A stretch of DNA of 64,000 bases from Centroscyllium fabricii (lineage: Eukaryota). Shown here piece after piece: positions 30,461 through 62,047 of the stretch. Under the pieces are notes generated by a model. It searched no databases. It saw only the letters and a program-made list of their open reading frames with translations, and was not told where the DNA came from. The stretch is from positions 166,160,001 through 166,224,000 of the forward strand of contig JBNRSN020000012.1 of the NCBI GenBank assembly GCA_051313645.2. Direction: 5' to 3'. The translations under genes were made by a program, and so were the position numbers. How positions within the stretch are numbered: position 1 is the stretch's first letter; every line of letters begins with the position of its first letter.

Positions 30461-30780
30461 TTACTCTGGCTACTTGATGCCACACTCAGTCAAATGCTGC
30501 CTTGATGTCATGGGTAGTCACTCTCACCTCACGAATTCAGCTCTGTTGTCCATGTTTGGACCAAGGATGTATTGAGGTCTGGAGCAGAGTGCTCCTGGTG
30601 GAACCCAAACTGAGTGTTGGTGAGCAGGTTATTGGTAAGTGTCGCTTGCTAGCACTGTCGACAACACCTTCCATCACTTTGCTGATGATAGATTTATGTC
30701 TCTTATCATATTGGCCTTAAAGAAAGGGCAGAAGTGCCTAACCTCATTAATTTAAAAAAACTCATTCTGAAAAACTTTTC

Positions 30781-31088
30781 ATAATAATAATTAATAATAA
30801 TTCAACTTTTATTGTCATTATACAATGTACAAGTACATGAACAACGAAATGTGATCTTGCAAGCTCCCAAGAGTCCAGCAAAGCCGCTGCGTCTGTGCGC
30901 GCCGCCATTCCATCTTCCCATCATTCCGACAATCTTCAGCCAACCGCCCCTCCCCGGGGCTCCTTTCGTGACCTTCTGCACCTGGTATTCCCTGGTGGTT
31001 ACCCATCCAAGTACTAACCAGGCCTGGCTCTGCTTAGCTTCCAAGCCTTGCCAGTGACCCTGTCCCTAGTCGCAGGAACAGGGTTCCC
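30781..31088 (-). mobile_element. 5S rRNA-derived SINE (SINE3-like), copy 1
   Basis: 30972-31042 matches the 3' part of vertebrate 5S rRNA (about 61/71 by eye) including box A, IE and box C; tail TGACAATAAAAGTTGA(ATT)n. Confidence 0.88.
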
Positions 31089-31366
31089 TACAGTGCAGAT
31101 AGAGGCCATTTCGGCCCATCGAGCCTGCACCGACACATATCGCAACCTACTCCCGTAACCCCACACATTTAATCCCCTTACACCAAGGGTCAATTTATCA
31201 TGGCCAATCAACCTAACCCGCACATCTTTGGACTGTGGGAGGAAACCGGAGCACCCGGAGGAAACCCACGCAGACACGGGGAGAATGTGCAAACTCCACA
31301 CAGGATTTGAACTCGGGCCCCTGGCACTGTGAGGCAATAGTGCTAACCACTATGCCACTGTGCCGC
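31089..31366 (-). mobile_element. HE1-like SINE fused directly upstream of the 5S SINE
   Basis: Same head and body as 1805-2140; lacks only the terminal TTCTATGAT. Confidence 0.85.
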
Positions 31367-49469: not shown

Positions 49470-51530
49470 TGTGTAATGTAATAGCAGAGCACTTGGAAAA
49501 CAGTGACCGGATCCGACAAAGTCAAAAAGGATTTACAAAAGGTAAATCGTGCTTGACTAATCTGCTGGAATTTTTTGAGGATGTAACTGGTAAAATAGAT
49601 AAGGGAGAACCAGTAGATGTGGTGTATTTGGACTTTCAGAAGGCTTTCGATAAGGTCCCGCATAAGAGATTAGTGTGTAAAGTTAAGACTCATGGGATTG
49701 GGGGCAAGGTACTGACTTAGATTAGATTCAATTTTATTGTCATTGCACAGTGAGCAAACACAATACAACAAAATATATTCTTGCAAACTCCCAGGAAACG
49801 ATGCAGATGTTAAAATGTCCGCTGCTTCAAGTCCCAGTCTGTTCAACTCCATGTTGGCCCTGGTGCTCCGACCACGCAGGCTCCGTCGCTCCGAACTCGC
49901 CGACCTCCGGCGCTACGACCACCTCGGTGACCACGCAGGCACCGGCACTCCGACTCTGCAAGCCCCAGTGCTCCGAACTTGCCGACCTCCGGCGCTACGA
50001 CCACGTCGACCTCGGTGACCACGCAGGCTCTGGCGCTCCGAGCACACCGACCCCGATGACCACGCAGGCTCTGGCGCTCCGAGTACACCGACCTCGGTGA
50101 CCACGCAGGCTCCAGCTCCAAACACGACCTCAAGGCCCCGGCGCTCCGACCACGTCGACCCCAGTGCATCCCCAATGCTCCGATCGCGGACATCCCGGTG
50201 CTCCAACAACTCCGTTGCACTGACCCCAGTGCACTACCACGCCGAACCAGCCATCCCCTCCGAGCAAACAGACCAGAACTACCAGCGGACAGCATCACCC
50301 CGGGAGACGCAAAGCCTCTGCGTCTACACGCGCCGCCATCTTGCCATCTGGCTTGGATAGAGAACTGGTTGGCAGACAGGAAGCAAAGAGTTGGAATAAA
50401 CGGGTCTTTTTCCAAATGGCAGGCAGTGACTAGTGGGGTACCGCAGGGATCGGTTCTAGGACCCCAGCTGTTCACAATATAGATTAATGATGTAGACGAG
50501 GGAACTAGATGTAATATCTCCAAGTTTGCAGATGACACTAAGCTGGGTGGGCGTGTCTGCTGTGAGGAGGATGCCGAGAAACTCCAATATAATTTGGACA
50601 GGTTGGGTGATTGGGCAGATGCATGGCAGATGCAGTGTAATGTGGATAAATGTGAGGTTATCCACTTTGGTGGCAAAAACAGGAAGGCAGATTATTATCG
50701 GAATGGCAATAGATTGGGAGAAGAGGAAGTGCAACGAGACCTGAAATAACAACGGAAAATGCTGGAAAAACTCAGCAGTTCAGGCAACATCCGTGAAGAG
50801 AGAAATAAGAGTCAACGTTTCGGGTCGGGACCCTTTATCAAATTGTGCACCAGTCGCTGAAGGTGAGCATGCAGGTGCAGAAGTGGTTAAGAAGGCAAAT
50901 GGTATGTTAGCCTTCGTAGCGAGAGAGTTCAAGTACAGGAAGAAGGATGTCCTGCTGCAGTTGCACAGGGCCTTGGTGAGACCACACTTTGAGTATTGTG
51001 TGCAGTTTTGGTTGCCTTATCTAAGGAAGGATGTTCTTGCCATGGAGAGAGTGCAGTGAAGTTTCACCAGACTGATACCTGGGATGGCAGGAATGACGTG
51101 TGAGGAGAGATTGGGTCGATTGAGCTTATACTCGCTGGAGTTTAAAAGAATGAGAGGGGATCTCATTGAAATTTATAAAATTCTAACAGGACTAGACCGA
51201 CTAGATGCAGGAAGGATGTTCCCGATGGCCGGGGAGTCCAGAACCAGAAGTTACAGTCTAAGGATAAGGGGTAAGCCATTTAGGACAGAGTTGAGGAGAA
51301 ATTTCTTCATCCGAGAGTGGTGAACCTGTGGAATTCTCTACCACAGAAGGCAGGTGGCTAATTTATTAAATATATTTAAGAACGAGTTAGATATATTTCT
51401 TAAGTCGAAAGGGATCATGGGATAGGGGTAAAAGGCAGGGACAGGGTACTGAGTTTGGATGATCAGCCATGATCTCATTGAATGGCTGGGTCGAGGGGCC
51501 GAATGGCCTGCTCTCATCTTCTATGTTTCT
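49470..51530 (+). mobile_element. CR1 LINE ORF2 3' part, interrupted at ~49718-50350 and ~50745-50845
   Basis: SCLTNLLEFF, VYLDFQKAFDKVPH, VTSGVPQGSVLGP; standard CR1 tail. Confidence 0.88.
49718..50350 (-). mobile_element. Non-autonomous retroposon with GC-rich internal repeats and a Rex1/Babar-like tail
   Basis: 5' CAAGATGGCGGCG; 3' CAATGACAATAAAATTGAATCTAATCT; imperfect TSD CTGACTT/CTGGCTT. Confidence 0.6.
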
Positions 51531-57758: not shown

Positions 57759-57963
57759 GTAAGGACTAAAAATTATACATATGTTTTTACATTATTTTAC
57801 TACAGAACGGCCAGAGTAGGCCGAATTGGTTTAAGCGGTGTGCTCACAAATCCTATCTTTTGATCACAATGACGCTCATTAAAATTGGAGAAGGATGAAA
57901 CTTTAGACAATGTAACAATTTCAGAGCTGAAGACTTTGTACTCTGTCAGGATAGGCACTATAG

Positions 57964-58268
57964 ATAATAATAATAATAATTAATAATAATTCAACTTTAT
58001 TGTCATTATACAATGTACAAGTACATGAACAACGAAATGTGATCTTGCAAGCTCCCAAGAGTCCAGCAAAGCCGCTGCGTCTGTGCGCGCCGCCATTCCA
58101 TCTTTCCATCATTCCGACAATCTTCAGCCAACCGCCCCTCCCCGGGGCTCCTTTCGTGACCTTCTGCACCTGGCATTCCCTGGTGGTCGCCCCTCCAAGT
58201 ACTAACCAGGCCTGGCTCTGCTTAGCTTCCAAGCCTTGCCAGTGGCCCTGTCCCAGGAACAGGATTCC
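57964..58268 (-). mobile_element. 5S rRNA-derived SINE, copy 2
   Basis: Near-identical to 30781-31088; 5S segment 58160-58230; (ATT)n tail. Confidence 0.88.
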
Positions 58269-58376
58269 TTCCGCTCTGCGTCTCCTTACTGAAGCGGGCT
58301 GGAGCCGTGGTCCCGGCCCCGAGAAATCCTGGCCCGCTGGTGTTCCCGCAAAGGGGGGGGGGTGCGAGTGCTCCCG

Positions 58377-58796
58377 TTAGGTGTATTCGCAGAGGTGCCC
58401 ACAGCCAGTCGGGCAGTGGGAGTGGAACTGGAACCAGTCCATGACGTGCTGGAGGTGGCCTCCGTGGGCACATCCCTGGCACCAGACAAACAGCCCCTTC
58501 ACCGCATGGTGGCAAATCGCACAGGTGCTAGCTCCATGGCGACACCTCTCGCACATCCAGCCTCGGGTGTTCATCGGCCGCTTGCAGTTGTTGCAGTTCA
58601 CGTGCAGGGTCGTCGACGCCTGGTTCAGGCAGTTGATGGATCTGTACGTGCTCAGTTTGATCACCTCGTTGGCCACGTTCCAAAGTCGGAAGCGCTGGAG
58701 GAGGTCAATGTAGGACGTGTACCAGTGCTCCTGTGTCTGCTCATCGATTTCTTTTTTAATCCTGTCTCCGAGCACAATCAGGACAGATATCGCCAT
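58377..58796 (-). pseudogene. WDR24: Processed, 5'-truncated WDR24 (GATOR2) retrocopy with an open C-terminal zinc-finger/RING ORF
   Basis: [23 protein letters not shown]...[12 protein letters not shown]...[26 protein letters not shown]...[11 protein letters not shown]; lies antisense in PIGX intron 2; no upstream WDR24 exons seen in the window. Confidence 0.88.
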
Positions 58797-59375
58797 TATT
58801 AAATAGAATCAACTAATTGGTATTTATTGAGTTAGAATTGTGAGGTTAAAACACACCAGAAAGAGAGACACCGCAGTATCAGACAGGCTTTTATCACAGT
58901 AGGGGCCAACTGTATATGTTCTTTTTTGTGCTTTGGCAACATAGGATGTATCTTGTCATGCCAATAAAGCAATTTGAATTGAATTGAATTGAGTGTGAAG
59001 AAGGAATTTTGATTGCCAGTGTAGATAAGAGAAAAGAGACCAGGTCAAAATCCTGGAACACTCTACCTAACAGTCCTGCGGGAGCACCTTCACCACAAAG
59101 ACTGCAGCAGTTCAAGAAGGTGGCCCGTCTCGAGGGCAGTTAGGGATGAGCAATAAATGCTGGCCTTGCCAAAGACGCCCACAACCCATGAATGAATTTT
59201 TAAAAAAGTACTGAGCTAAGAGGAGAGTTGCTAAGCCTTTCAGAGTTAAAGCAAGGCACAGAACATGACAAATGAAGATGGATATCCTATTTTTCATGTG
59301 GTTAATTTGGAGAATGTGTTGTTGAACAGGTAAAAGTCTGCATTATTGTGACTAATTGACTGCTTGCTTGTGTAG

Positions 59376-60730: not shown

Positions 60731-61587
60731 GTATGTAACAAATTAGAATGGGTGGCATCAGTTTGTTTTTTTGCCTTCCAATTTTCTATCCTCCCCTCAC
60801 TCCTATTATTCAGGTATGGTTCTGTAGAGGCCAGCTATTGTCTCGTTTCTCATTCAGTAAGTCTCGACTGTTTATTTGACTCTGGGGATGCACCAATCCC
60901 AATTCCATCCACACATGATTCCCACACTGGATTGCAACCTGCAGTGGAAACCCTGGCTTTTTTTTCTCCCCTCCCTAACCCAGGGATGCTGAAGTCAATT
61001 GTAGCACCCTAATTGCTGTTCTGTTTCAGTTCAGGTCAGTCAACAAAGAACAGACCATGATCTGTATAGCTCGGGTCCACACGGGGCTTTTTGTGCTGTA
61101 GATTGCAATAAACTTGATTTCTAGTGGAAACCTTTTACTGTAAAGGCAAACTTGTAAGTAGGGTTGCCAACTCTGGTTGGATGCATTCCTGGAGGTTTTG
61201 CCATCTGACCATGCGCCATCTGCAAATGTTACTGCACTCACCTTACAAAGATTGGGTCCCCTGTAGTTGAATATCTTTGCTTGTGGTTTTGCACCAGCAG
61301 CTGTTGTACGAGTAATTCTGAAAACCAGAGGCTCCCCGTGAGCGGGGGGTGGGGGAAGAGTGGAAACAGGGGTGAGGGGGGAACTGGGGGTGAGGGGGGA
61401 ACGGAGGGCAGTGGGGGGAGAGGAGGGGGAACAGTGTGTGGTGAGGAGGGGGGGGGGGGGACCAAGGGTGTTGGGGGGAACCGGAGTTGGAAGAAATTTG
61501 ATTTCACTAGTAACTCACTGAAAGTGCACCAATAACTAATACTGTAAAACTCATTTCCCTCATAACCAACAGTAATATAATAACTCA

Positions 61588-62047
61588 CTGATAGTAATAG
61601 GTGTGATATGTAACTGATAGTAATAGGTGTGATATGTAACTGATAGTAATAGGTGTGATATGTAACTGCTAGTAATAGGTGTGATGTGTAACTGATAGTA
61701 ATAGGTGTGATGTGTAACTGATAGTAATAGGGGTGATATGTAACTGCTAGTAATAGGTGTGATGTGTAACTGATAGTAATAGGTGTGATGTGTAACTGAT
61801 AGTAATAGGGGTGATATGTAACTGCTAGTAATAGGTGTGATGTGTAACTGATAGTAATAGGTGTGATGTGTAACTGATAGTAATAGGTGTGATGTGTAAC
61901 TGATAGTAATAGGTGTGATGTGTAACTGATAGTAATAGGGGTGATATGTAACTGCTAGTAATAGGTGTGATGTGTAACTGATAGTAATAGGTGTGATGTG
62001 TAACTGATAGTAATAGGTGTGATATGTAACTGATAGTAATCGGTGTA
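61588..62047. repeat. 26-bp minisatellite, about 17 copies
   Basis: Unit GATAGTAATAGGTGTGATRTGTAACT. Confidence 0.95.

Follow-up and report, generated by a model that had tools for sequence, protein, structure and literature searches.

One of the two 5S-headed SINE copies in the 64,000-nucleotide stretch of Centroscyllium fabricii DNA analysed here (the window) is a true mRNA-SINE chimera, joined at its 5' end to a spliced fragment of WDR24. We consider it probable (roughly 0.6) that this SINE, copy 2, and its WDR24 piece arose as one insertion through a jump of a Rex1-type reverse transcriptase, a rare accident, and that copy 1 is an ordinary insertion into the tail of an older HE1-type SINE.

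Both SINE copies proposed in the earlier note were real; they were ~300 nt each, full length, on the minus strand, and 95% identical to each other. Copy 1 (30781..31085) comprised a 5' hairpin, a 5S-like promoter region, a Rex1-like 3' end and an (ATT)n tail, and copy 2 (57964..58266) carried a 7-nt deletion within the 5' hairpin. A 22-nt head motif had 16,874 exact matches in the 7.2-Gb genome, which sets the minimum number of SINE heads. The head matched 5S rRNA (Rfam RF00001, E=3.4e-4, 30.4 bits) weakly, under the gathering score of 38, and with this reservation it represents the 5S rRNA-derived head that characterizes SINE3. The first ~40 nt folded into the 5' hairpin (z=−3.0), and the consensus of 66 unbiased copies (sampled independently of similarity) began A(G/A)CCCTG, with no conserved letter at the four positions further upstream. 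As a putative member of SINE3, it would be transcribed by RNA polymerase III. On the minus strand at 49726-50339, the window also contained a ~600-nt element of which the start matched the SINE middle (31 nt, 87%) and the end matched the SINE tail (72 nt, 76%); this is likely a two-ended non-autonomous relative of the 5S SINE.

The SINE tail was compared with the 3' ends of LINEs encoding RVT_1 together with PF09004, which we take to be Rex1-type, with PF09004 assumed to be a Rex1 marker. The best match was 72–76% over 83 nt, and these LINEs end in (GAATT)n versus (ATT)n in the SINE. No similarity was found between the SINE tail and 30 HE1-type 3' ends, such as a CR1/HER1-dependent SINE with an HE1/HER1 tail would show. 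A search for a partner LINE with the exact (ATT)n tail returned none, the 72–76% matches being the best candidates. Locus L017 was tried as a source of the partner LINE and rejected, as its stretch carried a Ty3/gypsy gag and no LINE ORF. Because the tail was Rex1-like and without a match to the HE1/CR1 tail, a CR1-type LINE, as the earlier note had in view, is probably the wrong partner, and, judging from the sequence, the enzyme of this SINE is likely Rex1-type rather than CR1.

WDR24 coding sequence and 3' UTR directly preceded copy 2, as had been claimed. The C-terminal coding sequence was identified via PDB 7uhy_C (E=5e-78) and formed a spliced, 5'-truncated piece of 139 codons plus stop with three exons joined (58377..58796, minus strand), followed by the first 115 nt of the 3' UTR (58262..58376, minus strand). 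These 535 nt corresponded to the last three WDR24 exons without introns and were 97–100% identical to the parent gene, which lies on another contig (G000:C745:32862167-32876544) and had no SINE in ~19 kb downstream. The match to the parent stopped 115 nt into the 3' UTR, precisely at the SINE start; the parent UTR continued differently beyond. At the junction (58262..58266, minus strand), the UTR letters AATCC lay over the SINE head A(A/G)CCC, with 2 nt exact and four of five matching an AACCC head. A 4-nt ATCC microhomology was dropped because the unbiased head reads A(G/A)CCC, the longer match being an artefact of having ranked the copies by their similarity to copy 2. Copy 2 therefore combines a 5' part of processed RNA, the same orientation, a direct junction and a retroelement at the 3' end. 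A second WDR24-like match (L035, G000:C446:79017274; 78% identical) was tried as a retrocopy and proved to be a last exon with a splice acceptor, possibly of a paralogous gene.

The site of copy 2 was resolved using an old host repeat, of which the upstream half (58797..58930, minus strand; paralogs L210/L220) was broken where the WDR24 piece starts and the downstream half (57770..57963, minus strand) resumed directly after the (ATT)n tail. Paralog L210 read across the site without loss, its upstream flank ending ...TATTTAATAAT and its downstream part resuming CTATA, and a second paralog, L212, showed the same join. Since the host-repeat paralog is continuous across the site, WDR24 and the SINE fill one break, and they interrupted the repeat at a single point with a 0–2 nt duplication and no deletion, the empty site being inferred from paralogs of 75–86% identity and not from an ortholog. 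At its 5' boundary the WDR24 piece had a shared AT. The SINE part of copy 2 differed from its seven best relatives by 0–1 substitutions. The WDR24 part carried 6 differences from its parent in ~530 nt, whereas the 275 nt of the SINE part showed no private change (p=0.10), a slight hint of an age gap between the two parts that runs counter to a single origin. Over 656 nt of flank, two samples of the best-matching organism showed 0 and 3 differences from the window, and therefore allelic variation could explain part of the six WDR24 differences. In a search of public runs for an orthologous empty site, 21 DNA carriers and no RNA carrier were listed; in the four runs compared with the downstream flank, contigs from two other organisms extended ~200 nt beyond it.

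In the reading we favor, the reverse transcriptase, presumably Rex1-type, would prime on the (ATT)n tail at the target AATAATC, copy the SINE RNA through to its 5' end, and then jump to WDR24 mRNA, guided by the 2–5 nt match between the SINE head and the WDR24 UTR. Copying of the mRNA would halt after ~535 nt, and the WDR24 5' end would be joined to the target via the common AT. The earlier note had proposed that the enzyme finishes the SINE and then moves to a second RNA. For copy 2 this is the best reading, and the U6 and pre-tRNA-Gly chimeras described below concur; copy 1 is better read as a nested insertion, and the adaptor role was largely refuted.

A single insertion site would fit equally well if the chimeric RNA had existed before copying, whether as the transcript of a lost or unsampled WDR24 allele with a SINE in its 3' UTR, ending in the SINE tail, or as a product of RNA ligation, with the LINE enzyme copying one RNA only. 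The junction of copy 2 also resembles a plain 5' insertion junction, as the 5' junctions of 5S SINE insertions show short duplications such as ATC or TATCC. The SINE tail contains AATAAA, and U6/L1 RNAs are reported to arise by RtcB ligation (PMC6789731). However, the assembled parent WDR24 has no SINE, the SINE part of copy 2 has no private changes, an additional and unobserved step is required, and a break internal to the UTR would offer no natural ligatable end. We therefore regard a pre-made chimeric RNA as unlikely.

An origin in two steps, an L1-type retrocopy of WDR24 followed by a SINE insertion that removed the remaining UTR together with the poly(A), is quite improbable. Ordinary poly(A) retrocopies are present in the genome (RPL21 at L204 and U6 joined to poly(A), both described below), and the WDR24 part is perhaps slightly older, as the p=0.10 comparison allows. 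Yet, because the host repeat resumes without loss, the deletion must have stopped exactly at the retrocopy boundary and erased its duplication. Its length is a further difficulty, as gaps at 65 traced insertions of the 5S SINE ranged from −24 to +39 nt, whereas in the parent the nearest candidate poly(A) signals lie 1.0–1.4 kb further on.

Copy 1 was directly preceded by a tRNA SINE in the same orientation (31085..31366, minus strand), ending at GGGA as the earlier note had described, and cut where its (TTCTATGA)n tail begins; this older element is the likely target of copy 1. We presume it to be HE1. The HE1 SINE is tabulated for sharks and rays (PMC3747384). Two details claimed for this junction changed on closer comparison. 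The overlap is one A and not a shared GGGA, because no letter is conserved ahead of the A(G/A)CCCTG that opens the head, and GGGA lay outside the SINE head in the 66 unbiased copies. The HE1 tail described as missing may be represented by TATGA at the copy 1 end (30779..30783, minus strand), partly within the (ATT)n run, because 29 of the 30 HE1 copies inspected ended GGGA-TTCTATGA(n) (one change tolerated in the first unit) and copy 1 terminates ...TTATTATGAAAAG.

The two elements also differed in age. Of 1937 HE1 candidates the top 40 were scored, and among these 40 the HE1 before copy 1 showed 13–17 substitutions (~5%) to its top seven relatives and a best genome match of 94%. The copy 1 SINE showed 2–3 substitutions (~1%) to its own top seven. 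Private changes numbered 7 in 279 nt of HE1 versus 1 in 284 nt of the SINE (Fisher p=0.036), which does not agree with equal age. Genome-wide, HE1 ends and SINE heads lay no more than 25 nt apart at three real sites among seven pattern matches, with at least 1.2 expected; fusion of HE1 to the SINE was consequently rejected as a class, being at chance level. No empty site was recovered for copy 1, as no paralog among the loci compared spanned it. With the form of the HE1 tail and an HE1 older than the SINE, insertion nested in the older HE1 tail fits better than the fusion proposed earlier and is in our view likely; a template switch onto HE1 RNA is a possible alternative.

Other copies of the 5S SINE were surveyed in two sets, the first 100 matches to the head motif on contig C1, a sample unbiased by similarity, and 58 copies taken by their rank in similarity to the two in the window. 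One copy without an anchor and five without a clear tail were dropped, leaving 152 copies, in which three pairs represented duplicated loci. Insertions were traced by comparing the flanks of each copy separately with all loci in the set. Seventy of the 152 copies tested were traceable, and 67 of these were plain insertions, with the host repeat taking up again directly at the ends of the SINE (45 of 46 in the unbiased traceable sample). The same tracing flagged copy 2 and the U6 chimera, which served as positive controls, and no mRNA cargo was found among the 70 traceable other copies. The other three traced copies, L005, L045 and L189, were rejected as cargo carriers, as the sequence between host repeat and head consisted of other repeats and not mRNA. 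Duplications of at least 5 nt at the SINE's own ends were present in 14 of 95 unbiased copies versus 3.2% of shuffled pairs.

For each of 156 copies, with three duplicates left out, the longest ORF on the same strand in the 1.4 kb upstream was screened with Pfam. The matches were to transposon domains, apart from one DUF7041, a sub-threshold repeat and the WDR24 of copy 2. No cellular domain above the Pfam cut-off was found upstream in the 154 other copies, a screen blind to UTR-only or frameshifted cargo; within the same limits, the unbiased sample gave 0 of 99, with an upper bound of ~3% (computed for 100). Cargo was thus not carried by a large share of copies, as a dedicated capture system would imply. 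The generalisation drawn earlier from the two window copies fails on these 152, and plain flanks, seen in most traceable copies, were the very outcome that the earlier note had set as refuting its capture system.

Some copies carried extra sequence of their own. Of 158 copies, 7 had self-derived SINE pieces at the 5' end, arranged in tandem in L003, L017, L021 and L156 and inverted in L114, L119 and L160, which would fit an enzyme prone to slip on reaching the 5' hairpin. A search for SINE dimers gave one real case among three pattern matches (the other two judged from matched letters only), the real one, at L372, joining two different subtypes of the 5S SINE head to tail. End-to-end jumps onto poly(A) were rejected, since the 15 pattern matches, at 12 loci, appeared by eye to be genomic A-runs or repeat interiors.

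Passengers other than mRNA were found in targeted searches. At L248 (G000:C933:91621212-91621630), a full-length U6 was fused to the first bases of the 5S SINE, and the host repeat ran on uninterrupted on either side of the pair. This was the only fusion to a 5S SINE head among 48 scored U6 matches, and 12 of the 48 were fused to HE1-type heads (L233, L253, L258, L260, L278, L281, L285, L288, L289, L290, L292 and L295). Some of the remaining scored matches joined CR1-like tails or poly(A), and a three-part chimera at L255:1423-1605 ran from U6 to tRNA-Asn to an HE1-type SINE. Using an exact pattern, the rate of U6 joining was 1 in 16,874 (5.9e-5) for the 5S SINE, a figure resting on one event (95% CI 1.5e-6 to 3.3e-4), versus 7 in 112,152 (6.2e-5) for HE1 (Fisher p=1), so that for U6 the 5S SINE did not exceed HE1. 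A tRNA pattern identified a pre-tRNA-Gly(TCC) with its 3' trailer fused to the 5S SINE head inside a 7-nt duplication (L375:1440-1830, G000:C800:59569240). Three distinct passengers, WDR24, U6 and pre-tRNA-Gly, are thus known at this head. Capture at the first bases of the 5S SINE is most likely rare, generic template switching of known kind, and not specific to this SINE, because U6 joins it and HE1 at equal rates.

Searches for further retrocopies and fusions gave little. The RPL21 search returned one retrocopy ending in poly(A) (L204:1275-1810, G000:C745:85480943); its tail adjoins the start of an HE1-type SINE, either a possible mRNA-HE1 chimera or two insertions. The search with PF03143 and PF01201 yielded exon-sized matches only, with no SINE near, and the search for U2 fusions yielded only tandem gene arrays. 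These U2 snRNA arrays, with periods of 836 nt and ~21.9 kb, were located at G000:C745:21.7-21.8 Mb and C1044:137.2-137.4 Mb. A tandem repeat of another kind, a 26-nt minisatellite of 17.7 copies (94% matches), was present in the window at 61587-62046.

That the 5S SINE is a specialised adaptor routinely capturing RNAs at +1, with both window copies as examples, is largely refuted and hardly credible, for although it could draw on the three passengers, the strong 5' hairpin, the frequent slipping suggested by the self-derived extras and a chimera in one of the two window copies, it is opposed by the plain flanks, the empty domain screen, the U6 rate equal to that of HE1, the single head-to-tail dimer and the twelve loci at which A-runs beside a head appeared genomic.

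CR1, L2 and similar LINEs are thought to copy only RNAs bearing their own tail (PMC5470649, PMC4476161), and outside mammals the number of retrocopies is reported to follow the content of CR1 or Tx1, the figure for cartilaginous fishes being 14,081 (bioRxiv 10.64898/2026.06.26.734816). Copy 2, a young chimera of mRNA and SINE whose empty site is resolved, represents one concrete way round the tail restriction of LINEs; as a trait of the 5S SINE family, mRNA capture is minor. Full-length SINEs of tail-specific LINEs (the Rex1-tailed 5S SINE, HE1 and others) might act as low-rate adaptors onto mRNAs in cartilaginous fishes and supply a sizeable share of retrocopies, a proposal that we hold to be doubtful. 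If it were true, such retrocopies could be recognised because they would end in a SINE and not in poly(A).

The SINE resembles SINE3, the group of 5S rRNA-headed SINEs that includes the combined 5S and bipartite RTE forms CoeSINE5 and HaSE3 (Kojima 2018, PMC5786205), in its 5S-derived head and LINE-derived tail. Unlike those described there, its first ~40 nt are replaced by a hairpin and its tail resembles PF09004-bearing LINEs; the term Rex1 is absent from the main text of that paper. Intron loss and 5' truncation of the WDR24 piece are shared with L1-type processed pseudogenes, whose other hallmarks, poly(A) and a long duplication, were lacking at copy 2, which ends in a SINE instead.

By analogy, copy 2 appears to have the testable features of known template-switch chimeras, both of U6 with Mon-1, L2 and AnolisSINE2 and of mRNA with L1. 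The U6-Mon-1 and U6-L2 chimeras of platypus and U6-AnolisSINE2 of Anolis were read as template switching, a process stated to occur across several LINE clades (Doucet et al. 2015, PMC4476161), and share with copy 2 a second RNA 5' of a stringent-type SINE or LINE and small duplications (1–9 bp in those cases). They differ in that the passenger of copy 2 is a spliced mRNA cut within its 3' UTR and the carrier a full-length 5S-headed SINE with a Rex1-like tail. Human mRNA/LINE-1, Alu/LINE-1 and small-RNA/LINE-1 chimeras, including 17 mRNA cases (bioRxiv 10.1101/2025.02.02.635956), are likewise co-insertions of a retroelement with mRNA fragments or small RNAs. The human chimeras involve L1, poly(A) and long duplications, and their exons are mostly first exons joined at splice sites, whereas in copy 2 the exons are the last three, the tail is (ATT)n and the duplication measures 0–2 nt. 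Among the papers listed in literature searches, no title or abstract described an mRNA fused to a 5S-headed or Rex1-tailed SINE. Relative to the known chimeras, copy 2 differs in that it pairs a spliced mRNA passenger with a full-length SINE that has a 5S head and a Rex1-like tail.
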